In this document: piece by piece, positions 9,911 through 61,380 of the stretch
How the letters are laid out: each line of letters starts with the position of its first letter
Numbering within the stretch: the first letter of the stretch is position 1
DNA from: Actinomycetota bacterium
GTDB taxonomy: Bacteria; Actinomycetota; Aquicultoria; Subteraquimicrobiales; UBA9087
NCBI GenBank assembly: GCA_030019215.1
Contig: JASEEZ010000003.1
Coordinates: 12,109 to 76,108, forward strand
Length of the DNA: 64,000 nt
Direction: 5' to 3'
Translations under genes and position numbers: made by a program
Notes under the pieces: generated by a model
Databases searched by the model: none
The model's input: the letters and a program-made list of their open reading frames with translations, nothing else
Told to the model about the DNA's origin: nothing

Positions 9911-9929
9911 GAAATGCGGTTAATAGTGG

Positions 9930-10303: not shown

Positions 10304-10315
10304 CTAGGTAAAGAT

Positions 10316-10762: not shown

Positions 10763-10771
10763 AATAGTTTT

Positions 10772-10846: not shown

Positions 10847-10882
10847 TGAAGCGATCGGGGAATCTATTTCATAAGATAAGAT

Positions 10883-10973: not shown

Positions 10974-11217
10974 AATATGTGCGGGGCGAATCCCACCCCC
11001 TCCGCTACCCCGCCTGTGGCAGGGTGCCCTGAGCTTAGCTGAAGGGCGAGATAGCAATTAGTTAGTAGTGGGGGAGTTGGGGGCCGGAGTTAATGAAAAA
11101 TGGAGAACGAAAAATGAAAAATTACAACGTAAAATTAAGAATGTTTTTAAATCCTTAAATCATTCTTCATTTTTAGTTCTTAATTCTGACTGTCAACTAA
11201 CAGACTCTTGATTAACT

Positions 11218-11308
11218 GGAGGAGTCGCATAGTTGGCCTAGTGCGCGCGACTGGAAATCGCGTTGGGTACCAAAAGTACCCTCGAGGGTTCGAATCCCTC
11301 CTCCTCCG
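11218..11308 (+). tRNA. tRNA-Ser (anticodon GGA), type II, CCA not encoded
   Basis: Acceptor GGAGGAG/CTCCTCC. Anticodon loop CTGGAAA. Long variable arm. T-arm GAGGGTTCGAATCCCTC. Discriminator G followed by CTA. Confidence 0.8.
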
Positions 11309-11351
11309 CTAGTTGGAAAATCTTTCTTTTTGATTCATAAACAGATATTTT

Positions 11352-11456: not shown

Positions 11457-12446
11457 ATGCCCAGACAACCAAGACTTGAAGCCCCAGGACTTATCTATCA
11501 CGTAATTGCACGAGGAATAGAGAGAAGAGAGATCTTTACTGACAAGGATGATTACACCTTCTTTCTTACCTGTTTTGGCGAGATTTTAGTTGAGACTCAT
11601 GCAGATTGTCTTGCTTTCTCTCTTCTTCCCAATCACTTTCACCTTCTGTTTAGATCAGGGGAAATTCCTCTCTCAACCATTATGAGACGACTTCTCACCA
11701 GATATGCTTTATTCTTCAACCGAAGACACAGACGATCTGGTCATCTTTTCCAAAACCGCTACAAATCAATCATTTGTCAAGAAGACCCCTATCTTCTCGA
11801 GCTTGTGCGCTATATTCATCTTAATCCCATACGAGCAGGCATTACAAAATCCTTGAGTGAGCTTAATTCCTATTCCTATACAGGACATAGCGCTCTCTTA
11901 GGAAGAGCACGCTTTGGCTGGTACCTGCCAGAAGCTATTCTTGGCTACTTTGGCAAAACTCAAAAGAAAGCTATCAAGAAATACTTAGAATTCATTGGTG
12001 ATGGTCTATCAATGGGAACAAATCCCACATATACTGGCAACAGCCCTAAGAGCTCTTTTGGTTATCCAAAGAGATATCCCAAGAAAAAGCAGATCTCTGA
12101 TGGGAGAATCCTTGGAGATGAAGATTTTGTCCGCGCTCTACAGGAGTGTGAAGAGAAAGAAAAGGAGAAAGGGAGTAAAGTGAGTATAGAAGAGTTGACT
12201 AAACGAGTAGCTAAGACATATTCTTTGGAGCCTGAGCAAATTAGAGGGAGGGGGAGAGCAAAACAATTAAGAGAAGCGAGAACTTTAGTAGCTTACGTTG
12301 CCACTACTTACCTAGGTTTTTCTTTTGCCGAAATAGCTCGTTACCTGAAAGTACATCGCTCAACATCAGCTAGAATGTTAGAGCGAGGCAAAGAGATTGC
12401 AAAGGGTATCGATGCTAAGCAGTGGATAATAGCAAAGGAGAAGTAA
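11457..12446 (+). mobile_element. IS200/IS605-type (Y1, HUH) transposase domain fused to a DnaA-C-terminal-like HTH domain (RAYT-like)
   Basis: 329 aa. N-terminus 'LIYHVIARGIERREIF...LLPNHFHLLF...FQNRY' (HUH plus catalytic Tyr, the Transposase_17 pattern). C-terminus 'QLREARTLVAYVATTYLGFSFAEIARYLKVHRSTSARMLERG' is DnaA_C-like. It is flanked by REP-like repeats. Confidence 0.7.
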
Positions 12447-19883: not shown

Positions 19884-21632
19884 GTGTCTTACATCTCTCT
19901 GTATAGAAAATATCGTCCTCAGACTTTTGGGGAAGTCGTTGGCCAGACCCACATCACTCAGACCCTGGCCAACGCGGTCAAGCAGAATCGCTTCTCCCAT
20001 GCCTATCTCTTTGCCGGACCCCGAGGAACGGGAAAGACAACCACCGCCAGAATCTTTGCCAAGGCACTCAACTGTGCCAAGGGGCCGACTCCCACCCCTT
20101 GCAATGAATGTGGAATCTGTTTGCAGATAATCGGGGGAAACTCCATCGACGTTCTGGAGATAGATGCCGCCTCCAACCGGGGCATAGATGAGATCAGGGA
20201 TCTAAGGGAAAAGATCCGCTTCACCCCGACGGAGGCTCGATACAAGATGTATATAATAGACGAAGTTCACATGCTTACCCCCGAGGCCTTTAACGCTCTC
20301 TTGAAGACGCTGGAGGAACCGCCTGAATGCGTAGTCTTCGTCCTGGCGACGACGGAACCTCATAAGGTTCTCCCCACGATCCTCTCTCGCTGTCAACGCT
20401 TTGATTTCAGGCGTATCCCGATTTCGGATGCGGTGGGATACCTCCACCAGATTGCGAAGGCCGAGGGAATAGTCATCGACGAGACTGTTCTTCCCTTGAT
20501 TGCCAGGCAGGCTCAAGGCTCCTTGAGAGACGCCATTGGGGTTCTGGAGCAGTTGTCCTCCTTTGCCGGTGAGAAGATCGGCCTGGATGAGGTTATCTCC
20601 CTTCTGGGCATGGTCGAAATTGAACTCCTGTTCGAGATCGTGGATATAGTGAGCAGGAGGGATACGGCCGGCGCCCTTTTCTTCGTGGAGAGGTTGATGG
20701 GGAGCGCGAGAGACATCCGGCAGTTCACGAAGGAACTCATAGACCACCTCAGAAATCTCTTCGTCATCCGGAGCACCGATGAACCGGCGGGGATGATAGA
20801 TGCTACCCCTGATGCCCTGGCCAGGATGGAGGCCCAGGCCTGCTCTTTCCAGCCATCCGAGATAATGAGATTCATGGATATTCTGACGGAAACTCACGGC
20901 GAGATGCGCTGGAGTCCAGATGCCAAGCTTCTCCTGGAGATGGCCCTGGTCAAGATGACAAAGCCGGAGGTGGATGCGTCTCTTGATGGGTTGCTGTATA
21001 GGATCGATGAGCTAGAGAGAAAGATCGAGGGACGAGGGACGAGGGACGAAAGTCAGAAGATAAAGAAGTTAGAGGCGAAAGAAATGGGGGAGGTGCACGA
21101 GGTTGAAGAGGTAAAAGAGGGAGAAGGCGCGAAGAAGGGGAAGGTGGAAGCGGTAAAGGGTACAGCGGGTGGAAAAAGAGATGAAGCGACACCCAGCCAG
21201 CAACCAGTTATCGGAAAGCAGGCTACAGGTCAAAAAATAGATATTGCTAGGGTGAGAAGAGCCTGGCCGGTGATTTTGAATCAGGTTAAAGAGAAGAAGA
21301 TATCCACTTACGCCCTCCTTCTGGAGTGCCAACCCTCCTCGGTAACGGAGAAGACCATCGTCCTGGAGTTCAGCGAGAGGGCCTCCTTTCATTTGCAGGA
21401 GATGGAAAAATCTCGCAATTTGAAGGTGCTCTTGCAATCTTTGAAAAAGGTATTGGGCATGGATGTGGATGTCGAGTGCACTTTGAGAGAGGATGAGGGA
21501 CCGAAGTCTCGGGAGACATCCCTCCGGGAAGAAAAGTTAACCGAGGAGCCGGTCGAGCCCCATATCGTCAAGCTGGTTCAGGATAGTTTCGGAGCAGAGA
21601 TAATCGAGGAAGTTGAATTCACAGAAGACTGA
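19884..21632 (+). CDS. dnaX: DNA polymerase III subunit gamma/tau
   Basis: GTG start. 'YRKYRPQTFGEVVGQTHI', Walker A 'GPRGTGKTT', and clamp-loader sensor motifs. Low-complexity acidic linker. Confidence 0.9.
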   Translation: MSYISLYRKYRPQTFGEVVGQTHITQTLANAVKQNRFSHAYLFAGPRGTGKTTTARIFAKALNCAKGPTPTPCNECGICLQIIGGNSIDVLEIDAASNRGIDEIRDLREKIRFTPTEARYKMYIIDEVHMLTPEAFNALLKTLEEPPECVVFVLATTEPHKVLPTILSRCQRFDFRRIPISDAVGYLHQIAKAEGIVIDETVLPLIARQAQGSLRDAIGVLEQLSSFAGEKIGLDEVISLLGMVEIELLFEIVDIVSRRDTAGALFFVERLMGSARDIRQFTKELIDHLRNLFVIRSTDEPAGMIDATPDALARMEAQACSFQPSEIMRFMDILTETHGEMRWSPDAKLLLEMALVKMTKPEVDASLDGLLYRIDELERKIEGRGTRDESQKIKKLEAKEMGEVHEVEEVKEGEGAKKGKVEAVKGTAGGKRDEATPSQQPVIGKQATGQKIDIARVRRAWPVILNQVKEKKISTYALLLECQPSSVTEKTIVLEFSERASFHLQEMEKSRNLKVLLQSLKKVLGMDVDVECTLREDEGPKSRETSLREEKLTEEPVEPHIVKLVQDSFGAEIIEEVEFTED

Positions 21633-21954
21633 AGACCAGCGGCCAGAGGTCAGGGGTCAAGAGTCAGGGGGCACGGGTCAAGGGATAAAGAACCAGGGAC
21701 GAAGGGTGAGAGAAGCAAAGAACGAAGGGTGAGAGAAATATAGGAACAGGGGGATTAACTTCCTGGTTTCCTAGCTTCCCGGGTTTCCTTGTTTTCATCC
21801 GACAGCCGACATCCATCATCCGACGAGGAATTTTCTCTAAGCTCTGAGCTCTTGGCTCTAAGCTAGCTGACAACTGTCATCTGTGAACTGTCAGCTATTT
21901 CGAATAACTAATAACGAATGGGCATGAAAATTTATGAGTAAAGGAGCGATCTCG

Positions 21955-30004: not shown

Positions 30005-30135
30005 GCTAAGGGACGAAGGGCGAAGGACGAGGGACGAAGATTTTTTCAGCCGTCATCCGACATCCGACGGCACAAGGCACAAGGCACCTGACATCCGTCA
30101 TCCGACAAGAACTAGAAATGAGTGGTGAAGAAAAA

Positions 30136-32144: not shown

Positions 32145-32186
32145 TTTCCTTTCCCCGTCGGAACCTAGACTCGGTGTTAAGTTAGG

Positions 32187-32436
32187 CTCTTCTCCAAAAA
32201 TGGTGGGCAGAAATTGCCAAGGCGAGATAAAGTGCGGAGAGAACTTTAGGATTCAAGGATCCAAGTGGTCAAGGGGTCTAGTGAAAGTCTTGCAAAATAA
32301 ATCACCTGAATCCTAGGACCCCAGAATCCTTGAATCCTTCTGTAAGAAATTTTTGCCTCCTCGAATCCTTTCATGAACCACTCTTTTGGATGAGAACGAG
32401 ATTAATAATTTTATCCACTAAAAATGGGGAAGAACC
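32187..32436. repeat. ~230 bp repeat element, copy 1 (termini CTCTTCTCCAAAAATGGTGGG ... TTATCCACTAAAAATGGGGAAGAACC; interior GAATCC word repeats)
   Basis: Aligns end-to-end with 58488-58691, with shared blocks 'GAGAACTTTAGGATTCA', 'CAAGGGGTC.AGTGAAA' and 'ACTCTTTTG'. It abuts the start of the helicase gene. Confidence 0.65.
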
Positions 32437-32457
32437 TTGAGTTATAATTTAAGAGGA

Positions 32458-36073: not shown

Positions 36074-37879
36074 ATGGAGATCATCGAAACCCCCGAAGGA
36101 CGTTGCAAGCAGTGTTATGCCTGTGTTCGCCTCTGTCCCGTTAAAGCCATAAAGGTTGGCCAGGGACAGGTGAAAGTCGATAGCAAAAAATGCATTTTTT
36201 GCGGTCGCTGTATAGTCGCTTGTTCCCGAGGAGCCAAGGTTGTCGTCTCGGAGAGGGAGGCGGTCGAGGATTTGTTGGCCAAGGGCCAGGCCGTGGCAAT
36301 CCTGGCTCCCGAGTATGTGGCCTACTTTCATCCCACCGATCCCCTCAGAGTTCAAGCTGCCCTGTTGAAAATGGGTTTTCATGTTGTTGAGGATACTATC
36401 GTCGGCGAGGAGCTCGTGGCCGATGAGTATCTGCGCTTGTTCCGGGAGTCTAAGGAGCCCGTCATCCGCTCCGCTTGCCCAGTCATCGTGGAATGGGTGG
36501 AAAAGTACTTCCCCGACCTCCTCTCTTATCTTGCCCCCCTCGTTTCCCCACCCATAGCTCAGGGAAGATTGTGCAAGGAGATTTATGAGGGTGCCGCCAC
36601 GGTCTACATCGGTCCCTGCCTGGCCGTGAAGGCAGAGGCCAGAGCGGAGGGCCTTGAGGAGGCTCTCGATGCCGTCTTGACCTTTCCCGAGCTGGAGGAG
36701 GTGTTCAAGGGGGCGAAGATCGACCCAAAGTCTTTAAAGGGACTTCCTGCCGAAAAAAAGACCTCCAAATTGGCTGGCTTGCGCATTCTCCCTCAAAGGG
36801 TTTCCCTCTTCGGGGGTTTCCCTCGGGAGGAGATCGCCAGGAGAAGTCTCTTAGACCGCGATATTCGAGTGGTAAGGGATGTGGGCGAGATGCAACCCTT
36901 GGTGGAGGCCTTTGGCCGGAAAGAGGTGAAACCCAAGATAATCGATGCCCTGAGCTGTGATGGTTGTCTGGCCAGCCCCTTGATGGGAAACTCCCCGCGG
37001 CTAGCTATAAGTAAACTGAGCCTCTTTGCGAGGCGAAAGGTTGTGGAGAGGCACTACCAGAAATTGGCGAAGGGGGCGAGGAGCGCCGAAGATCGCACCA
37101 AAATACTTTCGGGGTTACCCTCCATCGAGATGGGGAGGAAATTTTCGTCCAAGAAGGTGGACTTTCCTCTGCCTCATGAAAGAGAGCTCAAGGAAATTTT
37201 GGCTTCCGGGAAGATCAAATCGGTGGAAGACATCCTCGATTGTGGCGCTTGTGGTTATGATACCTGCGAGGCCACGGCAATCGCCATTTATCAGGGGGAT
37301 GCGGAATGGGGGATGTGCTTTCCCCATCAAAGAGAGGAAATGGTTCGCCTAATGAAAGCCCTGGAGAAAACCTCCATAACCGATGGGGTGACCGGCTTGT
37401 TCAACTACCATGGTTTGACCCACTGTGTGGGGAAGGAGATCAAGCGATGTCAAAGATATCAGGATACTTTTTCGGTGATCATCTTTGACGTCGATTACTT
37501 CAAGCTCATCAACGACACGTACGGGCACGTGAAGGGCGACTTATTGCTCAAGCTTATTGCTGATGTCTTAAGGCAGAATTTGCGGGAGGCGGACTCCGCA
37601 GCTCGCCAGGGAGGCGATGAGTTCACGGTGGTCCTGCCGGAGACGACAAAAACGGAAGCATTCGCCGTGGGGGAGAAGCTTCGTCAGAGGGTCGGTGAGG
37701 TCTCCTTCAAATTAGATAGTAAGGAAAAGGTGAAGGCCACCATAAGCCTGGGCATCGCCGGTTATTCGCCCGGGATAGCGAATCCCGAAGAGTTGATGGA
37801 GTTGGCCGATCAGGCCATGTACAAGGCCAAGAAGAGTGGCAGAAATTGTGTCTACATTGCTCCCGATAAGGGTGTCTGA
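36074..37879 (+). CDS. [FeFe]-hydrogenase-like iron-sulfur sensory domain fused to a GGDEF diguanylate cyclase
   Basis: N-terminus has two ferredoxin-like CxxCxxC sites ('CKQCYACVRLCP', 'CIFCGRCIVAC'). Degenerate H-cluster-like motifs ('SACPVIVEW', 'GPCLAVKAE', 'LSCDGCLASPLMG'). Cys-rich 'CGACGYDTCEA'. C-terminal GGDEF with 'RQGGDEFTVVLPE'. Confidence 0.7.
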   Translation: MEIIETPEGRCKQCYACVRLCPVKAIKVGQGQVKVDSKKCIFCGRCIVACSRGAKVVVSEREAVEDLLAKGQAVAILAPEYVAYFHPTDPLRVQAALLKMGFHVVEDTIVGEELVADEYLRLFRESKEPVIRSACPVIVEWVEKYFPDLLSYLAPLVSPPIAQGRLCKEIYEGAATVYIGPCLAVKAEARAEGLEEALDAVLTFPELEEVFKGAKIDPKSLKGLPAEKKTSKLAGLRILPQRVSLFGGFPREEIARRSLLDRDIRVVRDVGEMQPLVEAFGRKEVKPKIIDALSCDGCLASPLMGNSPRLAISKLSLFARRKVVERHYQKLAKGARSAEDRTKILSGLPSIEMGRKFSSKKVDFPLPHERELKEILASGKIKSVEDILDCGACGYDTCEATAIAIYQGDAEWGMCFPHQREEMVRLMKALEKTSITDGVTGLFNYHGLTHCVGKEIKRCQRYQDTFSVIIFDVDYFKLINDTYGHVKGDLLLKLIADVLRQNLREADSAARQGGDEFTVVLPETTKTEAFAVGEKLRQRVGEVSFKLDSKEKVKATISLGIAGYSPGIANPEELMELADQAMYKAKKSGRNCVYIAPDKGV

Positions 37880-37996
37880 TCCACTGGCCAGGAACCAGAG
37901 TTCAGGGGCCAGCCTTCAGCTACCAGTCACCAGGTACGAGGCACAAGGAACCAGGAACCAGGAACCAGGAACATCTGTCATCCGACAAGATCGTTT

Positions 37997-39016: not shown

Positions 39017-39077
39017 TCTCACCTTTTGCCACTCGTTCCGAGTTCCGTTATTAGGAATTAGTTATTCGAAATTCGTC

Positions 39078-39215
39078 TGTCAGCTTAGAGCTCGGAGTTT
39101 AGAGCTTAGAGAAAAATCTTTTGTCTCTACGCTCTCTGCTCCCTGCTCTCTGCTTTCCTCGTTATTCGTCCTTTCGCCCTTCGTCCCTGACCCCTGGCCT
39201 CTGTCAACCGTCAAC
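39078..39215. repeat. ~135 bp repeat element, copy A (CAGCTTAGAGCTCGGAG...CTCTACGCTCTCTGCTCCCTGCTCTCTGCTTTCCTCGTTATTCGTCC...CCTGGCCTCTGTCA)
   Basis: About 95% identical to the reverse complement of 54062-54200. The termini are shared with a diverged third copy at 61141-61380. Confidence 0.7.
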
Positions 39216-51995: not shown

Positions 51996-52961
51996 ATGCC
52001 GAAAATAGGGGTACCTCGGGCCCTTCTCTATTATAAGTACTTCCCCCTCTGGAAGACTTTCTTTGAGGGATTGGGGGCGGAGGTTGTGGTATCTCCCCCC
52101 ACCAACAAGCGTATCTTGAATCTGGGGACGGAGACGGCGGAAAGCGAGGCTTGTCTCCCGGTGAAGGTCTTCTATGGCCACGCACTAGCGCTCAAAGGGG
52201 AGGTGGATGCGCTCTTTGTTCCCCGCGTGGTGAGTGTGGAGGGGAAGGCCTATACCTGCCCGAAGTTTCTGGGGCTTCCCGACATGATCAAGGCCCTCGA
52301 CGATGATTTGCCGCCCGTGCTGGGCACCACCTTTAACCTCCGCCAGGGCTGGCGAAGGTTTTTTGCCTCTATTTATGAGCTTGGAAGCCATCTCACGAGA
52401 AATCCCTTAAAGATATTGCGGGCTTTCTATAATGGTGCCAGGGAGCTCAAGATATTCGACCAAAAACTGCGCGAAGGTTCTCTCGTCCCTGAGGCATTGG
52501 GCGAGACCGACTTCAAAAATCTTGCTAATCCCACCCTCACTATAGGGGTTGTTGGTCATCCCTACAACATCTTCGATTCCTATGTGAGCATGAATCTCGT
52601 AAAGCGCCTGCACAGGCGAGGGGCGAAAGTTCTTACCCCCGAGATGGTTCCCCCGGAGGCGATCGAGGAGAGCATCTCCTCACTCCCAAAGAGTCTCTTC
52701 TGGACCTACGAGAAGGACGTTGTGGGAGCGATCTTTTATTGGCTCGAGAACAATATGGTCAATGGCATTATCTATATGATCTCCTTCGCCTGCGGACCCG
52801 ACTCTCTCATCCAGGTTTTGGTGGAACAGGAGGCGAGAAAGATATCACCCGTGCCCTTGATGCCTTTGGTCATCGATGAGCACAGTGGCGAAGCTGGCCT
52901 GGTCACGCGTCTGGAGGCCTTTCTGGATATGATCGATCGGAAGAGGGCGAGGGTCCATTGA
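51996..52961 (+). CDS. DUF2229 (CoA-enzyme activase-associated) domain protein, first of two
   Basis: 'MPKIGVPRALLYYKYFPLWKTFFEGLGAEVVVS' is the typical DUF2229 N-terminus. GAGGGGA 7 nt before ATG 51996. Confidence 0.65.
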   Translation: MPKIGVPRALLYYKYFPLWKTFFEGLGAEVVVSPPTNKRILNLGTETAESEACLPVKVFYGHALALKGEVDALFVPRVVSVEGKAYTCPKFLGLPDMIKALDDDLPPVLGTTFNLRQGWRRFFASIYELGSHLTRNPLKILRAFYNGARELKIFDQKLREGSLVPEALGETDFKNLANPTLTIGVVGHPYNIFDSYVSMNLVKRLHRRGAKVLTPEMVPPEAIEESISSLPKSLFWTYEKDVVGAIFYWLENNMVNGIIYMISFACGPDSLIQVLVEQEARKISPVPLMPLVIDEHSGEAGLVTRLEAFLDMIDRKRARVH

Positions 52962-54046
52962 AGGTGACCTTCCCTCACATGGGAACGATAGATTCACTGC
53001 TTTCCGATCTCTTCACTCGCCTGGAGATCGATTTCCTCGTGCCCCCAAAGACCTCGACGAAGACGATAAGTTTGGGGGCGAGGTATGCCCCGGAGTTTGC
53101 CTGTTTTCCTCTTAAGGTCAACATCGGAAATCTTATCGAGGGACTGGATCTGGGAGCGGATACCGTGGCTATGGTTGGGGGGTTGGGTCCCTGTCGCTTT
53201 GGTTTCTATGCCGAGGTTCAAAATAGAGTCCTTCGCGATATTGGATACGATTTCGAGATGATCGTCCTGGAGCCGCCCGCCATCGGGATGAAGATTTTCC
53301 TGGAGAGATGTCGGAGGTTGGCGCCGAAGAAATCACTCTGGCAGATCTTCCAGGCGGTTAGGATTGGCTGGAAGAAGGCCGTCGCCGTTGACGAGGTGGA
53401 AAAGAGGGTCTTGCAGACCAGGGCTTTTGAGAGGAAAAAGGGTGATACCACAAGAGCTCATCGCAGGGCTCTGAAAGTTCTCAGCGAAGCTGTGACGGCG
53501 GAGGAAATTCGGTCTGCCCGCGAGGAGGCCCTGGCCATCATCGATTCCGTGGAGAGAAGGGAACAAGATTCTCTTCGGGTGGGCATAGTTGGTGAGTTTT
53601 ATATCCTCCTTGAACCTTTTGTGAATTTTGGCATCGAGGAGTATTTGGGGAACGAGGGTATTTATCTTGAGCGCTCGGTTTATCTGACGGATTGGCTCAA
53701 TCCCGGTGGGAAGAAACCGGTTTTTGGCACGACCAGGGAGAAGATCCATCACGCGGCCGAACCCTATCTCGCTCATTTCGTTGGCGGGGAAGGGCAGGAT
53801 ACCATCGGGCACATAGTGGAGTGGGCGCGGGAGGGCTTCGATGGAATAATTCACTTCCTCCCCTTTACCTGCATGCCGGAGATAATCGCCAAAAGTATTT
53901 TCCCCAAAATTGACAGGGAGCTGGATATTCCCATTCTCTCCCTCGTCATCGATGAGCAAACGGGAAGGGCCGGGGTCATCACCCGCCTGGAAGCTTTCAT
54001 CGATTTGATGAGGAACAAGAGAAAGAAACGGCTGGTGGCCAGCTGA
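52958..54046 (+). CDS. DUF2229 domain protein, second copy
   Basis: 'FPHMGTIDSLLSDLFTRLEIDFLVPPKTSTKTISLGARYAPEFACFPLKV'. Overlapping start/stop with the upstream DUF2229 gene. Confidence 0.65.
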   Translation: MKVTFPHMGTIDSLLSDLFTRLEIDFLVPPKTSTKTISLGARYAPEFACFPLKVNIGNLIEGLDLGADTVAMVGGLGPCRFGFYAEVQNRVLRDIGYDFEMIVLEPPAIGMKIFLERCRRLAPKKSLWQIFQAVRIGWKKAVAVDEVEKRVLQTRAFERKKGDTTRAHRRALKVLSEAVTAEEIRSAREEALAIIDSVERREQDSLRVGIVGEFYILLEPFVNFGIEEYLGNEGIYLERSVYLTDWLNPGGKKPVFGTTREKIHHAAEPYLAHFVGGEGQDTIGHIVEWAREGFDGIIHFLPFTCMPEIIAKSIFPKIDRELDIPILSLVIDEQTGRAGVITRLEAFIDLMRNKRKKRLVAS

Positions 54047-54061
54047 CAGATGCTGGGTGTC

Positions 54062-54200
54062 CAGAGGCCAGGGTTCAGGGACGAGGGACGAAGGACGAAT
54101 AACGAGGAAAGCAGAGAGCAGGGAGCAGAGAGCGTAGAGGCAAAAGATTTTTCTCTAAGCTCTAAGCTCCGAGCTCTAAGCTCCAAGGAACCAGGAACAA
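54062..54200. repeat. ~135 bp repeat element, copy B (inverted relative to copy A at 39078-39215)
   Basis: The reverse complement aligns at about 95% identity with 39078-39215. Confidence 0.7.
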
Positions 54201-54258
54201 GAAACCAATCATCCGACCTCCGTCATCCGACATCCGGCAGAGTGAGGAGGAAGAAAGA

Positions 54259-55245
54259 ATGGAGGGCTATCTCGGGGTCGACGTTGGCTCCGTCAGCACG
54301 AATCTCGTGATCATGGACGAGAAAGACGATCTTTTGGCCTATGTTTATCGGCGCACGATGGGTCAGCCAATAGTCGCCGTTCAGGAGGGGCTGAAGGAGC
54401 TTGAGGAAAAGCTCCCCGCATCGGTTGAGGTTCGAGGGGCGGGTACGACTGGAAGTGCCCGGTATTTGAGCGGGGTCATCGCCGGAGCCGACATCGTCAA
54501 AAACGAGATCACAGCCCACGCGGTGGCCGCCAGTCACGTTGTTCCCGATGCCCAAACCGTTCTGGAGATCGGGGGGCAGGACTCCAAACTCATCATCATC
54601 CGCGAGGGGGTAGTCGTTGATTTCGCCATGAATACCGTTTGTGCGGCCGGAACTGGTTCCTTTCTGGACCATCAAGCTGCGAGACTGGGTATTCCCATCG
54701 AGGAGTTTGGTTCCTATGCTCTGAAATCGAAGTCGGCAGCGCAAATCGCCGGGAGGTGCACCGTCTTCGCCGAATCCGACATGATTCACAAGCAGCAAAT
54801 AGGATACCGGTTGGAGGATATCATCTACGGATTGTGCCAGGCCCTTGTCCGGAATTACCTGAACAATTTGGCCAAAGGAAAGGAAATTTTATCTCCCGTC
54901 GTCTTTCAAGGTGGGGTAGCTGCCAATCTTGGTATCCGGAGAGCTTTTGGGGAGGCTCTGGAGAGCGAGATAGTCGTTCCCGAATATTATCACGTGATGG
55001 GAGCCATCGGTGCTGCACTTTTGGCCAAGGAAGCTGTAGAAGGAAGGACCGCTCCCTCCAATTTCAAGGGCTTCTCCGCTGCGGAGATAAAATATGAAAC
55101 TAGCAGTTTTCACTGCAAGGGCTGTTCCAATAACTGTGAGATCGTGAAGATTGAAGTTGGGGGAAGGGTGCTCGCTCGCTGGGGTGGGCGTTGTGGTAAG
55201 TGGGAAGTAGAGCAGGTTGAGGAAGCTGTTGCCGGACCCATCTAG
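54259..55245 (+). CDS. BadF/BadG/BcrA/BcrD-type ATPase (CoA-substrate-specific enzyme activase, HgdC-like)
   Basis: 'LGVDVGSVSTNLVIMDE', 'GAGTTGSARYLSG' and 'VCAAGTGSFL' ASKHA-fold activase motifs. Confidence 0.75.
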   Translation: MEGYLGVDVGSVSTNLVIMDEKDDLLAYVYRRTMGQPIVAVQEGLKELEEKLPASVEVRGAGTTGSARYLSGVIAGADIVKNEITAHAVAASHVVPDAQTVLEIGGQDSKLIIIREGVVVDFAMNTVCAAGTGSFLDHQAARLGIPIEEFGSYALKSKSAAQIAGRCTVFAESDMIHKQQIGYRLEDIIYGLCQALVRNYLNNLAKGKEILSPVVFQGGVAANLGIRRAFGEALESEIVVPEYYHVMGAIGAALLAKEAVEGRTAPSNFKGFSAAEIKYETSSFHCKGCSNNCEIVKIEVGGRVLARWGGRCGKWEVEQVEEAVAGPI

Positions 55246-55274
55246 TCTCAATGAGAATGGGAATGAGAGGACAA

Positions 55275-55314
55275 GGGGTGCCCCGATGAACATCGGGGCA
55301 CCCCTTTACTTTAT
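55275..55314 (+). terminator. intrinsic terminator after the activase gene
   Basis: GGGGTGCCCCGATG-AA-CATCGGGGCACCCC followed by TTTACTTTAT. Confidence 0.7.
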
Positions 55315-55667: not shown

Positions 55668-56576
55668 TTGGTGTTCAAGATCGTTAAAAAAGAAGAACTC
55701 ACCGCCGATGTTTACCTGATCGAGTTGGAAGCCCCCGACATTGCCAGGAAAGCACAGCCTGGTCAGTTCATCGTGCTTCGCATCGGCGAGCGAGGCGAGC
55801 GCATCCCTCTGACCATCGCCGATTTTGACCGGGCAAAAGGAACGATTTCCATCCTCTTTCTGGTGGTTGGTAAGTCCACCAGGTGGCTTTCCGATCTCCG
55901 GGCCGGGGATCACCTTGTTGATGTCAGCGGTCCACTGGGCAAACCGAGTGAGATAGAAAGGGTGGGGACCGTCCTTTGTGCTGGTGGTGGAGTGGGGATA
56001 GGTGCCATTCATCCAATTGCCCGAGCCTTTCGCGAGGCGGGCAACCGTGTCATCGTGGTCATGGGTTTCCGCAGCAAAGACCTCATCGTCTTCGAGGATG
56101 AGATGAGGGCAGTCTGCGACGAGTTTCATATCTGCACCGACGATGGTTCCCGCGGTTTTAAGGGTTTCGTAGCCCAGTTGGTCGACAAAATTCTTAAAGA
56201 AGACGAGGTCGATCTAGTCTATGCCATTGGCCCCACGATGATGATGCGCACCGTCTGTGATACCACTCGGCCTCACAGGATAAAAACTGTGGTTAGCCTG
56301 AACCCAGTTATGGTGGATGGTACGGGGATGTGTGGTTCTTGCCGGGTCTCGGTGGGTGGAAAGACTAAGTTCTGCTGTGTGGACGGCCCCGAGTTCGATG
56401 GCCAGCAGGTGGACTTTGACCTGCTCATGGCCAGACAAAAAATTTATCTAGAAGAAGAGAAACTATCGATGGAGCGATATGAAGCAAAAGGGGAAGGACG
56501 AAGGGCGAAGTCCGAAAGGCGAGTGAAGGACGAAAAGCGAAAAGCGGAGGGCGAGTGTCGAAAAGTGAAGAGTTGA
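55668..56576 (+). CDS. nfnA: NfnA/SudB-type ferredoxin-NADP+ reductase small subunit (FAD/NAD-binding, PyrK-like, [2Fe-2S]); its C-terminal ~30 aa are encoded by a GGACGAAGG-type repeat
   Basis: 'GQFIVLRIGERGERIPLTIA', 'LCAGGGVGIGAIHPIA', 'CGSCRV...C'. The tail 'AKGEGRRAKSERRVKDEKRKAEGECRKVKS' is translated from repeat DNA. Confidence 0.75.
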   Translation: MVFKIVKKEELTADVYLIELEAPDIARKAQPGQFIVLRIGERGERIPLTIADFDRAKGTISILFLVVGKSTRWLSDLRAGDHLVDVSGPLGKPSEIERVGTVLCAGGGVGIGAIHPIARAFREAGNRVIVVMGFRSKDLIVFEDEMRAVCDEFHICTDDGSRGFKGFVAQLVDKILKEDEVDLVYAIGPTMMMRTVCDTTRPHRIKTVVSLNPVMVDGTGMCGSCRVSVGGKTKFCCVDGPEFDGQQVDFDLLMARQKIYLEEEKLSMERYEAKGEGRRAKSERRVKDEKRKAEGECRKVKS

Positions 56577-56577
56577 A

Positions 56578-56964
56578 ATGAAAGATAGATTGGAAAATAA
56601 CGATATCTATCAAAAAGCAGTTGAAATATATAATAAATTTTTGGAAGAGGATTTGGATATTTTGAGGAGAGATTATTGCGGCCGCGAAGTTGGAAAACAG
56701 CTGATATGTAGTTTGGGTTCGATAAGTTCGAATATCGAAGAGGGTTATGGAAGAGGATTCGGTAAAGAGTATATATATTTTTTAAGGGTTGCTCGAGGGT
56801 CGGCGAGGGAAAGCAAAGGTTGGTATCAGCGAAGTAAAAAATTTCTTCCGCCTAAGATTATTGACCAAAGAGTAAAAGCATTGGATGAAATTATTTCTAT
56901 GTTGGTTGTGACTGTAAATAAACTGGAAACAAAAATTCGTCCTTCGTCCCTCGACCTTCCGTGA
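56578..56964 (+). CDS. four-helix-bundle protein (TIGR02436, 23S rRNA intervening-sequence protein family), low-GC insert between nfnA and nfnB
   Basis: 'VGKQLICSLGSISSNIEEGYGRGFGKEYIYFLRVARGSARESKGW' matches the family's GKQLxRSxxSIxxNIAEGYGR...ARGSxxE core. About 35% GC versus about 55% in the neighbours. Flanked by inverted GGACGAAGG / CCTTCGTCC repeats. Confidence 0.75.
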   Translation: MKDRLENNDIYQKAVEIYNKFLEEDLDILRRDYCGREVGKQLICSLGSISSNIEEGYGRGFGKEYIYFLRVARGSARESKGWYQRSKKFLPPKIIDQRVKALDEIISMLVVTVNKLETKIRPSSLDLP

Positions 56965-56979: not shown

Positions 56980-58407
56980 GTGACGAGAGTTAGGAGCAAT
57001 CGGGGATTGGAGAAATCAAAGAAAGCGATGGTTTTGAAACGTGTGCAAATGCCCGAGCGGGCTCCCGGGGTGCGCGTTACGAATTTCAATGAAGTTGCTC
57101 TGGGTTATTCCCCGGAGCGGGCCATCCAGGAAGCCAGCCGCTGTCTTCAGTGCAAGGATTCTCCCTGCAGGCGAGGTTGCCCGGTGGAAGTAGACATTCC
57201 CGCCTTTGTAAAATGCATCAAGGAAGGGGATTTCACAGGGGCCATTCGCGAGATCAAGAAGAAGAACTTTCTTCCGGCCATCTGTGGACGGGTCTGTCCT
57301 CAAGAAAATCAATGTGAGCGATTCTGTGTCTTGGGTAAGAAAAGGGATCCTCTGACCATCGGGGGACTGGAGAGATTTGCCGCCGACCACGGACGCGACA
57401 AAAACCCACTGGATGAGCCATCGAAACCGAAGCCAACAGTTAAAAGAGTGGCGGTCGTCGGCTCCGGTCCCGCCGGACTCACGGTCGCCGGTGACTTGGC
57501 CAGGGTGGGCCATGAGGTTACCCTTTTTGAGGGACTGCACAAACCCGGTGGGGTTCTGGTCTACGGGATCCCTGAGTTCAGGCTCCCCAAGGAGATCGTC
57601 GAGTTCGAGGTCGACTACGTTAGGCAGCTGGGTGTGGAGATAAAAACCAACGCTGTCATCGGAAAACTCTTCACCATCGATGAACTCTTCAAAAGAGGTT
57701 ATCATGCCATCTTCATTGGGGTGGGGGCGGGCCTTCCGCTGTTCATGGGCATCCCCGGCGAGAATCTCGATGGAGTCTATTCCGCCAACGAATTTCTAAC
57801 CCGCGCGAATCTAATGAAGTCCTATCTGTTCCCGGAATACGATACCCCCATCAAACGTGGCGGGAGGGTGGCGGTTGTCGGCGGGGGAAATGTGGCCGTT
57901 GATGCCGCCCGAGTGGCTCTTCGCCTGGGGGCCGACGAGGTTTACCTCGTCTATCGGCGAGGCGAGGCGGAGATGCCGGCAAGGGCGGAGGAGATACGTC
58001 ATGCCAAAGAGGAGGGAATAATCTTCGAGGTTTTGACCCTCCCGGTTAGGTTGTTGGGGAAGAACGGCTGGGTCTGCGGAATGGAGTGTGTGAGGGTGGA
58101 GTTGGGCGAGCCGGATGAATCAGGACGCCGCCGTCCAATCCCCATCAAAGGCTCGGAGTTCGCCCTCGACGTGGATGTGGTGGTCGTCGCCATCGGGACG
58201 AGGGCAAACCCTCTTCTTCCGAGCACCACCCCGGGTCTGGAGCTCAATGAGCGTGGTTACATTGTTGCCGATGAAGAGACCGGAAGAACGAGCAGGGAGG
58301 GGGTTTTTGCCGGCGGAGATATTGTCACCGGTGCGGCCACGGTGATTTCGGCCATGGGGGCGGGGAGGAAAGCCGCCCGCGCCATCGATGAGTATTTAAA
58401 AAAGTAA
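56980..58407 (+). CDS. nfnB: NfnB/GltD-type NADPH-dependent oxidoreductase large subunit (glutamate synthase small-subunit-like)
   Basis: 'CLQCKDSPCRRGCPVEVDIP', 'VAVVGSGPAGLTVAGDLAR', 'VAVVGGGNVAVDAAR'. GTG at 56980; ATG 57028 is the alternative. Confidence 0.8.
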   Translation: MTRVRSNRGLEKSKKAMVLKRVQMPERAPGVRVTNFNEVALGYSPERAIQEASRCLQCKDSPCRRGCPVEVDIPAFVKCIKEGDFTGAIREIKKKNFLPAICGRVCPQENQCERFCVLGKKRDPLTIGGLERFAADHGRDKNPLDEPSKPKPTVKRVAVVGSGPAGLTVAGDLARVGHEVTLFEGLHKPGGVLVYGIPEFRLPKEIVEFEVDYVRQLGVEIKTNAVIGKLFTIDELFKRGYHAIFIGVGAGLPLFMGIPGENLDGVYSANEFLTRANLMKSYLFPEYDTPIKRGGRVAVVGGGNVAVDAARVALRLGADEVYLVYRRGEAEMPARAEEIRHAKEEGIIFEVLTLPVRLLGKNGWVCGMECVRVELGEPDESGRRRPIPIKGSEFALDVDVVVVAIGTRANPLLPSTTPGLELNERGYIVADEETGRTSREGVFAGGDIVTGAATVISAMGAGRKAARAIDEYLKK

Positions 58408-58487
58408 GCCCGCTGCTTGCTCAAGAAATCCGGGATATTTGTCGATAAATATTAAGACGTCTGGGACCATCTGGGTTAACAAATTTG

Positions 58488-58691
58488 ACTCTTCTCCAAA
58501 AATAGTGGGTGGAACAACTAGGTGCGATGAAGCCTAAAGAGAACTTTAGGATTCAGGGATTCTAGGGGCCAAGGGGTCAAGTGAAAAACACTTGAATCCT
58601 CGAATCCTTGAACCCTCGAACCCTTCTACGTGCAACTCTTTTGAGAAAAGAACAAGATTAAAAGTTTATCCACTAAAAATGGAGAAGAACC
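58488..58691. repeat. ~230 bp repeat element, copy 2 (same termini as 32187-32436)
   Basis: End-to-end alignment with copy 1. Sits directly upstream of the histidine kinase gene. Confidence 0.65.
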
Positions 58692-58720
58692 ATAAATTTG
58701 GATTATTATCGGGGTGAGAA

Positions 58721-60480
58721 ATGGATTTTGAGCCAGGAATGAGGCTGGGAATAGTCAGGAATGCGGCCAGAGTGCGGTGGCTGGTCATTGCCTACGTTCT
58801 TCTCTTTGTCTATTTTAACCCCACCCCACTGATAAAACTGCCCTTGGTTCTGGCGCTGATGGCCATGGCGGCCGCGTATAATCTCCTGGTTCATTTTGGC
58901 ATCTTTCCCTTTAAACTGACCGAAGGCGAAGGTCCAGGAGCGGTCTATGCCACGGTTTTAGGGGACATTGCGCTGGTCACTATGCTTATCGTGCTAACGG
59001 GCGGGGCCCATAGCCAGTTTTACTTTCTATATTTCCTCATTCTCCTTCTCGTGGCCGTCGCTTTCACCCTCCCCGTTGCCCTCGCTTTTACCCTTCTCAT
59101 CTCCACGATCTACTTTACCATTTACTCTTTGAGGCATCCTTTTCCCATGGAGTGGCTCAACGTCTCCTTGGGCCTGATCCTGGTTTGGTTTGCCATGACC
59201 CTGGCTTGTTACTATCTAGTTGGTGAGATCAGAAGGCAATCGGAGAGCTGCCGAATTGCCTACGGCGATCTCCAAAGTCACCATGAAGAGGTGGAGCGCC
59301 TTTCCCAAAAACTGGGAAGGGCTCTTACCGATTTGTCCACCATCTATAAACTCAGCAGGCAGATGGTGGCCAAGACCAACCCGCGAGAACTTTTGGATAT
59401 GGCGGTGCGGATGTGTAGGGAGGTTCTCGGTGCGGAATCGGTCTCCATAATGCTTCTGGGTAAAGACAGAGGAGAGCTCACCATTGAAGCAGCTCAAGGT
59501 CTAAGTGAGGAGTTGGTTAAGAATACTCGGGTGAAGGTCGGTGAGCGTGTCGCCGGCTGGGTGGTCAAAGAGGGCAAACCCTTACTGCTCGATCAAGATC
59601 TCAGCGGAATGGAGTTTAAGAAATTCCACAAGAGAGCGTCGGTCAAGTCCTCTTTGTGTGTCCCTTTGGTTGTGGGGGAGAGCCGATCGGGGCATTGAAC
59701 GTCACGAACAAAAAGTCGGGAGAGGAATTTACTCGAGATGAGCTGGAGCTACTCACCTCCTTCGCCGAGCACGTGGCAATAGTTTTGCAGAGAAATGTTC
59801 TCCTTTCAGAATTGGAGGAGAACCGGAGCATTCAGGAGCGCTTGACGAAAAAGATAATCGATGCGCAGGAGGAGGAGAGAAAGAGAATCGCTCTGGCTAT
59901 CCACGATAGTGTGGTTCAACTGATCGCCAGTACTCTTTTAAGACTCGACGCCTGCGAAGCACACCTTAGTGGCAATGATCGAGCAAGGGCGGAGCTTTAT
60001 AAGGCAAAAGAGGTGCTCGATGACAGTTTGGGTGAGATGAGAGGGCTCATCTCGGATCTTCGTCCAGTTCTCCTCGACGATCTTGGTCTCATTCCCGCTC
60101 TGCGCAAGACTGCGGAGGAGTGGGGAAAGGAAATGGGTATAACGACGGAGATCACGCTCGAGGGGCCTCACCCCGATTTGCCAAAGTCGGCGGAGACGGC
60201 CCTGTTCCGGATTGTCCAGGAGGCCTTGGCCAATGTGAAAAACCACGCCAAGGCCACCCGGATGGATTTGAAGATAACATCTGCAGATGGGCGACTGGAA
60301 ATCAAAGTGAAAGACAATGGTGTAGGTTTCGATTTTGAAAAAATCATCGCCAAATCCCTTACCAGCAAGAACATCGGTTTTGAGTCCATGCAGGAGAGAG
60401 CGAAGATGTGCGAAGGCAGCCTGGAGATAAATAGCGCCCCTGGGAAGGGAACGGAGGTCAAAGTTGTCGTCCCGCTTTGA
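58721..60480 (+). pseudogene. membrane GAF sensor histidine kinase (HisKA_3/NarL-type) split by a frameshift in a G5 run at 59674-59678 (inside the GAF domain)
   Basis: Frame 2 gives '...SSLCVPLVVGESRSGH*'. Frame 1 continues 'GGEPIGALNVTNKKSGEEF...' and then 'IHDSVVQLIAS' (HisKA_3) and HATPase_c. Adding one G restores 'CVPLVVGGEPIGALNV'. Confidence 0.7.
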
Positions 60481-61140: not shown

Positions 61141-61380
61141 AAATCAGCTTAGAGCTCAGAGCACGGAGCTAGTGAGTTGATAGTCGTCAGTCGGGAGTCG
61201 TCAGTTTTTAGCCCCCAGCTTCCAGTCGCCAGTTACCAGTCCTCTTTGGTTTTGCTGAAAGCTGGCAGCTGGAGGCTGGAGGCTGTTATTTTTACTCCCC
61301 ACTCCCGACTTTCTATCCACGCTGGTGGCTGGAAGCTGGTAGCTGGCCCCTGGCCTCTGTCATTTGTTATCCCTCATTTG
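61141..61380. repeat. diverged third member of the CAGCTTAGAGCTC...CCTGGCCTCTGTCA element family with a different word-repeat interior (AGTCGTCAGTCGGGAGTCG; GCTGGCAGCTGGAGGCTGG)
   Basis: Shares both termini with the copies at 39078 and 54062. The interior is replaced by other oligo-word tandem repeats. Confidence 0.5.

Follow-up and report, generated by a model that had tools for sequence, protein, structure and literature searches.

A putative fully split form of the anaerobic ether-lipid enzymes PlsA/PlsR and Ger in an uncultured actinobacterium

In an uncultured anaerobic actinobacterium, three neighbouring genes, RedA, RedB and Act, encode as separate proteins two DUF2229 modules and an ATPase of the HgdC/BadF type. 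Which enzyme do these proteins form, and on what substrate would it act? We examined the cassette within its window, the whole 64-kb stretch of DNA that was analysed, and across 86 loci.

The RedA-RedB-Act cassette and its surroundings

The features of the locus are collected in Table 1. A first-pass annotation had described two DUF2229 genes with overlapping stop and start, tightly linked to a BadF/HgdC-type ATPase gene; coordinates and Pfam matches confirm this arrangement, with the TTG start of RedB lying on the TGA stop of RedA in a 4-nt overlap (TTGA) and a single, separate ATPase gene downstream of both Red genes. The TTG start is supported by tblastn alignments to relatives, which begin at residue 1, and the RedA start is preceded by a GAGGGG ribosome-binding site and agrees with the N-termini of homologues. 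NCBI places the RedA start at 51978 (327 aa, MDI6891714.1) and labels the cassette proteins 'acyl-CoA dehydratase activase-related'. The first pass had also seen no dehydratase or reductase partner, and Pfam scans of the window (selected ORFs, mostly at least 150 aa) revealed no other HGD-D or benzoyl-CoA reductase subunit in the 64 kb. Pfam scans of window ORFs likewise placed no CoA-transferase, 2-hydroxyacid dehydrogenase or aromatic-degradation genes near the cassette.

Table 1. Features of the cassette and its flanks (positions in the window)
Feature	Position	Strand	Remarks
RedA	51996-52961	+	DUF2229 protein, 321 aa; counterpart of the Red1 module in fused PlsA/Ger-type proteins
RedB	52958-54046	+	Second, more divergent DUF2229 paralogue, 362 aa, TTG start; counterpart of Red2
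Inserted repeat element in RedB-Act spacer	54062-54182		~121 nt; blocks of tandem heptamers, long imperfect hairpin
Act	54259-55245	+	HgdC/BadF-type ASKHA ATPase, 328 aa; matches Act2 of fused proteins
Act C-terminal extension	55066-55218	+	~50 aa, C286-x2-C289-x3-C293...C312; from Cys conservation and model
G+C-rich hairpin	55273-55306	+	15 bp, 28 nt past Act stop; terminator-like scan
NfnA-like FAD/NAD-binding [2Fe-2S] subunit	55668-56576	+	NF004862, 406.5 bits vs cut-off 220; Pfam DHODB_Fe-S_bind
NfnB-like (GltD-type) NADPH-dependent Fe-S flavoprotein subunit	56980-58407	+	TIGR01316, 591 bits vs 472; Fer4_20, Pyr_redox_2

The 212-nt spacer between RedB and Act contains the repeat already noted there, at a size smaller than the ~135 bp first reported. 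It folds into its hairpin with z = -3.3, and an inverted copy, ~95% identical, is present at 39082-39203. The equivalent spacer of the relatives L007 and L001 lacks the repeat, which we therefore regard as a lineage-specific insertion, incidental to the system and no part of it. Because the T-tract that follows it is weak, the G+C-rich hairpin beyond Act is a predicted terminator, one that likely ends the RedA-RedB-Act transcript.

Act is separated from the NfnA-like gene by 420 nt and a hairpin. The NfnA-like ORF runs into a repeat, so the true C-terminus of its product is probably near residue 280; relatives comprise 279-281 aa. Act is followed by an NfnA-like gene in the window and in loci L001-L004 and L006-L008, and among the 86 loci the NfnAB adjacency is kept only in Aquicultor-like Actinomycetota, the window's own lineage. 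By virtue of this adjacency, the NfnA-like and NfnB-like proteins may be part of the electron supply of the cassette.

The ATPase and the two DUF2229 proteins

Act belongs to Pfam family BcrAD_BadFG (E = 5e-45), exceeds the cut-off of TIGR00241, 'acyl-CoA dehydratase activase' (184.8 vs 125.4 bits), and matches MbdQ, HadI and HgdC among PDB sequences (E = 1e-41 to 1e-34). Foldseek comparison with solved activators gave TM scores of 0.86-0.91, normalised to the target, indicating the HgdC/HadI/MbdQ fold. Residues Cys128 and Cys167 do not vary among 68 split and 16 fused modules. We take them to stand where HgdC has Cys127 and Cys166, which together bridge a [4Fe-4S] cluster across the dimer, as reportedly described by Locher et al. 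in 2001. The C-terminal extension of Act is covered by no Pfam domain and is absent from the solved activators, which are 260-270 aa long and were aligned over ~265 columns only. It is predicted to form a small three-stranded module (strands 280-285, 294-300 and 303-308). Every one of the 68 split Act proteins has all four tail Cys. The eight Act2 modules from fused proteins all have the first three, and seven of them have the fourth as well; the Act1 modules lack them. Act shares its Cys4 tail only with Act2.

RedA matches DUF2229 (PF09989) over the entire model (positions 1-218 of 218; E = 8e-52), and RedB, which is 24% identical to RedA (E = 1e-16), matches it at E = 5.7e-11. Both proteins also contain a weak HGD-D match, in RedA at the C-terminus (model positions 263-342); the scores of 17.8 and 19.8 bits compare with a cut-off of 28.4 and concern the last ~70-80 residues only. 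Pfam provides no name for the Red proteins beyond DUF2229, and no NCBIfam model matched. Structure comparison of a predicted model assigns RedA to the fold of HAD, BCR and DCCP catalytic subunits (the HgdA/B-BcrB/C fold). By structural alignment the Red proteins are ~10-13% identical to 2-hydroxyacyl-CoA dehydratases, and HadC is a PDB sequence match to a Red query at E = 0.37.

RedA contains three Cys residues (Cys53, Cys88 and Cys266), all invariant; RedB contains four, of which Cys49, Cys79 and Cys305 are conserved across 69 split RedB and 40 fused Red2 sequences. These three-Cys sets are invariant in split as well as fused forms, and in the alignment the third conserved Cys falls in the F-C-x-P cluster-ligand region of HadC and DCCP. 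Three invariant Cys per Red subunit are as expected for a putative [4Fe-4S] cluster with an open site. RedA, which keeps an invariant D294-E295-H296 motif, is probably the catalytic subunit, and RedB, without the His of this motif, probably acts as an electron relay or scaffold. An ASKHA ATPase with a Cys pair, a catalytic-subunit fold and conserved Cys in each Red protein are all features of the HAD/BCR/DCCP superfamily. The first-pass suggestion that the DUF2229 pair is the ATPase's own partner is supported by the RedA fold and the three invariant Cys in each of RedA and RedB, together with the co-travel of the cassette genes and their collinearity with fused proteins, described below.

Assignment to class I benzoyl-CoA reductases (BcrABCD, BzdNOPQ, MbdONPQ) fails: these enzymes have two different ATPase subunits versus one in the cassette, Act widely misses all NCBIfam equivalog cut-offs (109, 72 and 65 bits vs 578, 380 and 313), and the scanned window ORFs include no aromatic-degradation genes. 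Membership of the 2-hydroxyacyl-CoA dehydratases (PF06050) fails as well, the HGD-D match being partial and under the gathering score.

Fused counterparts, gene neighbours and competing readings

As the first pass had stated, in other anaerobes these modules are fused into one giant protein, and ~1400-aa fused versions exist in large numbers. Its description of that protein as 'of unknown function' is out of date: two functions are known for the fused protein, plasmalogen synthesis in anaerobes as PlsA/PlsR (Jackson et al. 2021, cited through PMC12838417, PMC9702350, PMC10191378) and glycerol ester reduction as Ger, built of exactly these Pfam domains (PMC13159169, PMC8788747). In other anaerobes, PlsA/Ger converts ester-linked membrane lipids to ether lipids (PMC12838417, PMC13159169). 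Proteins with BcrAD_BadFG, DUF2229 and HGD-D domains yielded 1-alkyl glycerol ethers in E. coli, under anaerobic conditions only (PMC13159169), and plasmalogens were likewise obtained by expression of the layout Act1-Act2-Red1-Red2 (PMC12838417). PlsA/PlsR, which is oxygen sensitive and found in anaerobes (PMC12838417, PMC10191378), is exemplified by CPE1194/CPE1195 of Clostridium perfringens and by single-gene PlsA in Enterococcus, Lactococcus and Bifidobacterium; Ger is exemplified by Tmari_0479 of Thermotoga maritima and SHJ90043 of Desulfatibacillum alkenivorans. Since the function of the fused protein is known, the cassette is not an entirely uncharacterised enzyme class. The earlier view of the DUF2229 pair as an uncharacterised ATP-driven redox enzyme thus holds for the split single-ATPase form and not for its fused homologues.

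Concatenated as Act, RedA and RedB, the cassette aligns with ~1400-aa fused proteins over 98-100% of the length, with ~770-814 bits and 32-35% identity. Module-wise identities refer to the five nearest fused proteins, a set separate from the tested PlsA/Ger sequences (Q8XL48/Q8XL47, Q835P9, AGL49404, SHJ90043): Act is 50-53% identical to Act2, the C-terminal tail included in four of the five, RedA 29-32% to Red1, and RedB 24-27% to Red2 (residues ~975-1395). Act is closer to Act2 (51%) than to Act1 (48%), and the Red proteins are collinear with the fused proteins, RedA corresponding to Red1 and RedB to Red2. Fused protein P0212 has the same pattern of DUF2229 plus weak HGD-D as RedA and RedB. 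The best full-length matches with a named source are fused proteins of Thermodesulfobacteriota/'Deltaproteobacteria', Pseudomonadota or Zixiibacteriota MAGs. The sole, indirect link to the tested enzymes is a fused protein of Thermodesulfobacterium geofontis (24-52% identity per module), an ether-lipid producer named as carrying a Ger-type 'modified plsA' (PMC8788747).

Like PlsA/PlsR, the cassette combines an HgdC-type ATPase with two paralogous reduction/dehydration modules, in which DUF2229 is followed by an HGD-D-like C-terminal part (PMC12838417), and with conserved Cys for [4Fe-4S]; with Ger it shares the defining Pfam domains PF01869, PF09989 and PF06050 (PMC13159169). Unlike PlsA/PlsR, all modules are separate genes, with one ATPase gene versus two tandem modules, and the gene order is Red1-Red2-Act versus Act1-Act2-Red1(-Red2); judged from reported sizes, Red2 is apparently already a separate gene, PlsR, in C. 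perfringens (PMC12838417). The cassette also lacks the 'BBD' fusion of PlsA/PlsR-Ger, two tandem BcrAD_BadFG domains before DUF2229, which is reported to be conserved in all alkyl-ether producers (PMC13159169), and its sequence does not distinguish an alkyl from a vinyl ether product.

Scanning the GTDB species genomes gave at least 572 confirmed matching stretches. The RedA-RedB-Act order is kept in 68 of the 86 loci, from Actinomycetota, Bacillota and Chloroflexota, each of these cassettes having a single Act match and the two diverged Red paralogues always being paired. The split neighbourhoods show a cassette kept across three phyla, with plsX or ACP adjoining it in some lineages: plsX starts within ~20 nt of the Act stop, or overlaps it, in eight Dehalococcoidales-type loci, where it is probably co-transcribed with the cassette, and in seven other Actinomycetota loci RedA is directly preceded by a stand-alone ACP gene. 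These two are the recurrent metabolic neighbours; Pfam scans show neither adjoining the cassette in the window. Bacillota loci have it behind the spoVA sporulation operon, a position that is uninformative on lipids. We found no lipid data for the source lineage, an uncultured MAG, and no description or test of the split form in the literature, widespread as it is.

We consider it reasonably probable that the cassette is a fully split PlsA/PlsR-Ger, made up of three subunits: a low-potential reductase/dehydratase driven by ATP, from the HAD/BCR ('archerase') superfamily. This assignment is favoured by the collinearity with fused proteins, the invariant Cys, the Act fold, the shared Cys4 tail and the kept gene order, and the plsX and ACP adjacencies are independent lipid links. 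The missing 'BBD' fusion and the restriction of the NfnAB adjacency to one lineage speak against it, as does the Red identity of 24-32% to the nearest fused proteins, which is far below the 41-55% among tested PlsA/PlsR (PMC12838417) and makes a different substrate possible. New here is a fully split arrangement with just one ATPase gene; the fused PlsA/PlsR-Ger enzyme kind was known already.

The ATP-driven radical machinery could instead act on a soluble metabolite, a 2-hydroxyacyl-CoA or other activated acid, as a distant HAD/BCR dehydratase or reductase. In favour of this, the matches in fold and the weak ones in C-terminal sequence point to HadC, HgdB-type and BCR subunits, the Red identity to fused PlsA/Ger-type modules is only 24-32%, and the NCBI label points the same way; nonetheless, we judge this unlikely, as the HGD-D match is below the Pfam cut-off and confined to the last ~80 residues whereas DUF2229 is full-length, and the recurrent metabolic neighbours are plsX and ACP; genes for CoA-transferases, hydroxyacid dehydrogenases or fermentation are absent both from the window ORFs scanned and from the annotated recurrent neighbour families of the 86 loci. 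The Cys4 tail, moreover, is common to the fused PlsA/Ger-type proteins and absent from solved HAD/BCR activators. The 2-hydroxyacyl-CoA dehydratases (HgdAB with HgdC; HadBC with HadI) thus differ from the cassette in their HGD-D scores, in an activator without the tail and in the CoA-ester metabolism genes that the cassette does not have nearby; they also recycle one electron, whereas the reaction proposed for the cassette would consume two.

Quite unlikely, in our estimation, is a distinct, possibly ancestral minimal enzyme, with a symmetric Act homodimer that has a Cys4 tail on each subunit, a different substrate entry (the ACP/PlsX sn-1 acylation step) or a different product, and electron-bifurcating NfnAB as donor in Aquicultor-like Actinomycetota.

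An enzyme of the early lipid pathway would reduce an acyl group on ACP, acyl-phosphate or lysophosphatidate at the PlsX/PlsY sn-1 step, feeding an alkenyl or alkyl chain into glycerolipids. Both the probably co-transcribed plsX immediately downstream and the ACP gene immediately upstream of RedA-RedB point to acyl-ACP and sn-1 acylation, but plasmalogens derive from finished diacyl lipids, and the fused enzymes act on E. coli phospholipids without extra partners (PMC13159169, PMC9702350). As these adjacencies fit any membrane-lipid function equally, and the window has neither gene close to the cassette, this role seems very doubtful.

A general low-potential reductase, with RedAB acting on acetylene, hydrazine or azide at a special cluster and Act serving as DCCP-R, is highly improbable: both component folds of DCCP and DCCP-R (Carboxydothermus hydrogenoformans; PDB 6eno, 7yyl) match those of the cassette, but BCR and HAD subunits match as well or better, the three Cys of RedA and three conserved of four in RedB are too few for the double-cubane [8Fe-9S] cluster, which reportedly needs six per subunit in a homodimeric protein (said to be the finding of Jeoung & Dobbek in 2018), and two diverged, always paired paralogues, a proposed heterodimer, take the place of the DCCP homodimer.

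Proposed reaction and biological meaning

As a fully split PlsA/PlsR-Ger, the cassette would work as follows. By homology to HgdC, an Act homodimer would hold one [4Fe-4S] cluster between its Cys128/Cys167 pairs, to be reduced by reduced ferredoxin or flavodoxin; in this lineage the adjacent NfnAB may regenerate the donor from NADPH. ATP binding and hydrolysis would push an electron into the RedA/RedB heterodimer, each Red subunit of which, given its fold and conserved Cys, would hold a [4Fe-4S] cluster by three Cys, leaving one iron site open. There, an acyl ester carbonyl would be reduced by two electrons via a ketyl radical, then protonated and dehydrated. By analogy with the fused homologues and from the gene neighbours, the most likely substrate would be the sn-1 ester of a glycerophospholipid, and the product a vinyl ether (plasmalogen) or, upon further reduction, an alkyl ether.

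Bacterial ether lipids, both plasmalogens and alkyl ethers, bear on the 'lipid divide' debate, on sediment lipid biomarkers and on gut-microbe signalling. Published anaerobic-pathway searches target the fused Act-Act-DUF2229 architecture (PMC13159169, bioRxiv 10.64898/2026.06.23.733905). If the cassette performs the same chemistry, predicted ether-lipid synthesis would extend to Aquicultoria, Geothermincolales, Dehalococcoidales and many spore-forming Clostridia. If the distinct minimal form is real, ether lipids would also be made, so far unrecognised, by hundreds of Actinomycetota, Dehalococcoidia and spore-forming Clostridia, most of them uncultured, which current plsA/ger searches for the fused 'BBD' would miss. 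Should the chemistry differ, the cassette would be a new branch of ATP-driven radical enzymes. With the split form, biochemistry that a 1400-aa fusion makes difficult, including tests of what the Act Cys4 tail does, could be done on three small proteins, each expressed by itself.

Gene content and conserved residues of the split cassette

The cassette comprises genes for two paralogous DUF2229 proteins, RedA and RedB (24% identity, E = 1e-16), and for Act, an HgdC/BadF-type ATPase. The TTG start of RedB and the TGA stop of RedA overlap by 4 nt, and a 212-nt spacer separates RedB from Act. RedA, which is identical (100%) to MDI6891714.1 from an Actinomycetota MAG and has its closest relatives (50–70% identity) in 'Candidatus Aquicultor'-like Actinomycetota, matches the whole DUF2229 model (Pfam, E = 8e-52) and, below threshold, HGD-D over its last ~80 residues; for RedB, the DUF2229 match (E = 5.7e-11) comes with a similarly weak HGD-D tail. 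Act matches BcrAD_BadFG (Pfam, E = 5e-45) and is assigned to TIGR00241 'acyl-CoA dehydratase activase' (NCBIfam), falling far under every NCBIfam benzoyl-CoA-reductase equivalog cut-off. No NCBIfam model matched RedA or RedB, and Rfam detected neither a riboswitch nor any other RNA close to the cassette. A Pfam scan of selected window ORFs, mostly ≥150 aa, revealed no additional gene of HGD-D, BcrB/C or BadF type within the 64 kb; together with the gene calls and a repeat search, this bears out in every point the first-pass annotation's description of the locus, including a repeat between the second DUF2229 gene and the ATPase and no dehydratase or reductase partner gene elsewhere in the window.

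Features of the split cassette
Feature	Position	Strand	Length and remarks
RedA	51996-52961	+	321 aa
RedB	52958-54046	+	362 aa, TTG start
Repeat element in RedB-Act spacer	54062-54182		~121 nt
Act	54259-55245	+	328 aa

The same annotation had taken the DUF2229 pair itself as the probable electron acceptor of the ATPase, correctly so in view of the conserved cysteines, a profile match to known enzymes and the fold of Act. Cys53, Cys88 and Cys266 are the only cysteines of RedA and, like its D294-E295-H296 motif, are invariant across 74 split and fused homologues, the fused proteins being ~1400-aa polypeptides of Act1–Act2–Red1–Red2 architecture. In RedB, Cys49, Cys79 and Cys305 are invariant among 69 split and 40 fused sequences, and where RedA has D-E-H, the RedB counterpart has no His. 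In 2-hydroxyacyl-CoA dehydratases (HAD), three cysteines per subunit are characteristic of a [4Fe-4S] cluster that has one iron open. The RedA profile gives weak matches at the C-termini of double-cubane cluster proteins (DCCP) and HadC, placing its third cysteine on their F-C-x-P motif. Act adopts the HgdC/HadI/MbdQ-type fold, and its invariant Cys128 and Cys167 are presumably the cluster-bridging positions (Cys127/Cys166 in the HgdC structure). As far as sequence and structure show, the DUF2229 pair is the partner of the Act ATPase.

Act ends in a ~50-residue extension carrying four cysteines (C286-x2-C289-x3-C293...C312), modelled as a small three-stranded module in the predicted structure; solved activators, of 260–270 aa, lack this tail, and we found no description of it. 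All four cysteines are invariant in 68/68 split Act proteins. Of the eight fused-protein Act2 modules examined, every one has the first three and seven have the fourth as well; Act1 has none of the tail cysteines. The Cys4 tail, a possible site for either zinc or an additional Fe-S cluster, links split Act specifically to PlsA/Ger-type proteins, and not to classical activators of HAD or benzoyl-CoA reductase (BCR).

Relation to anaerobic plasmalogen synthases and glycerol ester reductases

The fused form, described in the first-pass annotation as being of unknown function, corresponds to the anaerobic plasmalogen synthase PlsA/PlsR and the glycerol ester reductase Ger (PMC12838417, PMC13159169), so that this description is outdated. 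PMC12838417, together with PMC9702350 and PMC10191378, both of which cite Jackson et al. 2021, describes PlsA/PlsR as Act1–Act2–Red1–Red2 proteins of the BCR/HAD family and reports that the Clostridium perfringens plsA-plsR operon, as well as single-gene plsA (Enterococcus, Lactococcus, Bifidobacterium), yields plasmalogens when expressed in Escherichia coli. Tmari_0479 of Thermotoga maritima and a homologue from Desulfatibacillum alkenivorans, named Ger, have an architecture of PF01869 x2 followed by PF09989 and PF06050/PF09989 repeats, and produce 1-alkyl glycerol ethers only anaerobically (PMC13159169).

A concatenate of Act, RedA and RedB aligned with the ~1400-aa fused proteins over 98–100% of its length (~770–814 bits, 32–35% identity). 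Module by module (blastp, five fused proteins), Act shared 50–53% identity with Act2, with the C-terminal tail included in 4/5, and 45–50% with Act1; RedA shared 29–32% with fused residues ~650–975, and RedB 24–27% with residues ~975–1395. One of the five, from Thermodesulfobacterium geofontis, shows the same Pfam pattern as RedA, and this species is listed among ether-lipid producers with a 'modified plsA' (PMC8788747). The Red modules of the split form nevertheless share only 24–32% identity with the nearest fused proteins, well below the 41–55% among the tested PlsA/PlsR enzymes (PMC12838417); the split form also lacks the 'BBD' fusion reported in all alkyl-ether producers (PMC13159169).

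Distribution, gene neighbourhoods and repeat elements

A GTDB scan with one genome per species returned at least 572 relatives, the best 80 of which are all of the split type; these and six others make up the 86 cassette loci examined. By tblastn of the window proteins, 68 of the 86 have the order RedA–RedB–Act with a single Act. The loci belong to Actinomycetota, Bacillota and Chloroflexota (Dehalococcoidales), with Desulfotomaculum copahuensis, Anaerovirgula multivorans, Alkaliphilus peptidifermentans and Caloranaerobacter azorensis as cultured Bacillota carriers. One Dehalococcoidales locus (L028 8999-11124) has two consecutive RedB-like genes (RedA, RedB, RedB', Act). Neither a paper describing the split cassette nor lipid data for the lineage of the window turned up in the library-limited literature searched, which included the sporulation-gene survey PMC3533761.

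Clustering of the genes around these loci revealed several patterns. Dehalococcoidales-type loci run from an M20 peptidase-like gene through RedA, RedB, Act, plsX, thioredoxin and DUF1462 to thioredoxin reductase, and in eight such loci the start of plsX overlaps the Act stop or is no more than ~20 nt away from it. In seven Geothermincolales-like Actinomycetota (L005, L010, L012, L015, L018, L019, L021), a stand-alone acyl carrier protein (ACP) gene lies 30–160 nt upstream of RedA–RedB and Act is not adjacent; either the ATPase must have its gene elsewhere or these loci work differently. Through plsX and through ACP, the cassette is tied independently to acyl-chain and sn-1 glycerolipid metabolism, where PlsA and Ger act. 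In 13–16 loci of spore-forming Bacillota (including L014, L020, L023, L043, L058, L060, L076, L077 and L081), the cassette lies directly 3' of spoIIAB-sigF-spoVAC-spoVAD-spoVAE-spoVAF (in the ~6 kb upstream of it), an adjacency that raises the question of expression in the forespore and gives no mechanism.

Other neighbours were considered as parts of the system. Of the genomes compared, the window and its Aquicultor-like relatives (L001–L004, L006–L008) alone have NfnAB-type genes 3' of Act, and in the window 420 nt separate these genes from Act, with a strong hairpin and a site resembling a promoter in between; we therefore rejected NfnAB as an obligatory partner and retain it as a candidate only. 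A ~305-aa flavoprotein downstream in Dehalococcoidales was rejected as a dedicated electron donor because it is paired with a thioredoxin gene and looks like half of an ordinary Trx/TrxR pair. The ApbE and LysE genes upstream of the cassette were excluded because the content of this slot varies among relatives, which carry CBASS-like genes, a sigma factor with an RsgI-domain (anti-sigma-like) protein, or a sortase. In L001, a Candidatus Aquicultor MAG, the clpB–cassette slot (4930-7286) holds a SMODS/DncV-like nucleotidyltransferase and two unannotated genes and looks like a CBASS-type defence island.

In the RedB–Act spacer repeat, blocks of tandem heptamers surround a long imperfect hairpin, and an inverted, ~95% identical copy lies at 39082-39203. 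As the element is missing from this position in relatives, we rejected it as a regulatory part and regard it as an incidental insertion. Successive tandem heptamer blocks (for example AGGGACG, AGCAGAG, CTCTAAG, AGGAACC, CATCCGA), often forming imperfect hairpins, occupy intergenic regions at 9565-9595, 21014-21059, 21644-21919, 30009-30107, 37929-37972, 39047-39203, 54063-54236, 56480-56560, 56936-56959, 58520-58625 and 61146-61360. They resemble the short tandemly repeated heptamers of cyanobacteria and do not occur in L007, a 65%-identical relative. The blocks at 56480-56560 and 56936-56959 flank a gene for a 128-aa '23S rRNA-intervening sequence protein' (PF05635, four-helix bundle; 56578-56964) between nfnA and nfnB, which are directly adjacent in all relatives; the window nfnA ORF extends ~20 codons into the heptamer repeat. 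A separate direct repeat of ~220–265 bp (32179-32443 and 58481-58698; ~80–86% identity) immediately precedes two unrelated genes, one for a DEAD/MrfA-type helicase (32437) and the other for a GAF sensor (58721), and may be a shared promoter or a mobile intergenic element.

Elsewhere in the window, a GAF-HisKA_3-HATPase sensor kinase is apparently split by a frameshift into ORFs 58721-59698, which stops within GAF (profile 2–98 of 133), and 59656-60480, which opens with 97–133; this is a pseudogene or else the result of misassembly. A cluster of tRNA genes, four for Ser and one for Arg, lies at 9168-11309, where G+C dips to 0.46 and the tRNA-Arg 3' end is duplicated exactly (28 nt) at 9883-9910; in the ORF that follows (11457-12446), an IS200-type Y1 transposase domain is joined to a C-terminal helix-turn-helix of the DnaA type, and the region may be an integration hotspot. 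ORF 36074-37879 carries a GGDEF diguanylate cyclase domain in fusion with ferredoxin-like domains and those of an [FeFe]-hydrogenase large subunit, possibly forming an H2- or redox-sensing c-di-GMP signalling protein. Genes for LarC-like nickel-insertion, LarB-like (AIR carboxylase family) and LarE-like (ATP pyrophosphatase family) proteins at 647-3671 (−) constitute a nickel-pincer cofactor set, and no LarA was noticed alongside them in the window.

Proposed reaction and alternative assignments

On balance, we read the cassette as a probable lipid ester reductase. An Act homodimer with a bridging cluster would take an electron from ferredoxin or flavodoxin and, driven by ATP hydrolysis, deliver it into the three-Cys clusters of RedA/RedB. 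An ester carbonyl at the open iron would then be reduced by way of a ketyl radical to a hemiacetal, with uptake of another electron and of protons, and dehydration of the hemiacetal would produce a vinyl ether; additional reduction would yield an alkyl ether. Unlike the dehydratase reaction, this proposed reaction would use up two low-potential electrons per turnover, and the neighboring NfnAB, linking NADPH to reduced ferredoxin, would therefore be sensible, the link being positional only.

An HAD/BCR-like enzyme acting on a soluble substrate is unlikely, the Cys4 tail setting Act apart from the activators of those enzymes. Action at the acyl-ACP/PlsX stage would fit the plsX and ACP neighbors and is less probable still. 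A DCCP-like reductase is very improbable. Returning to the lipid ester reductase assignment, the locus appears, as judged from homology, to be a new architectural variant of a known enzyme family rather than a new kind of system, and the split cassette can serve biochemistry as well as the prediction of ether-lipid producers.
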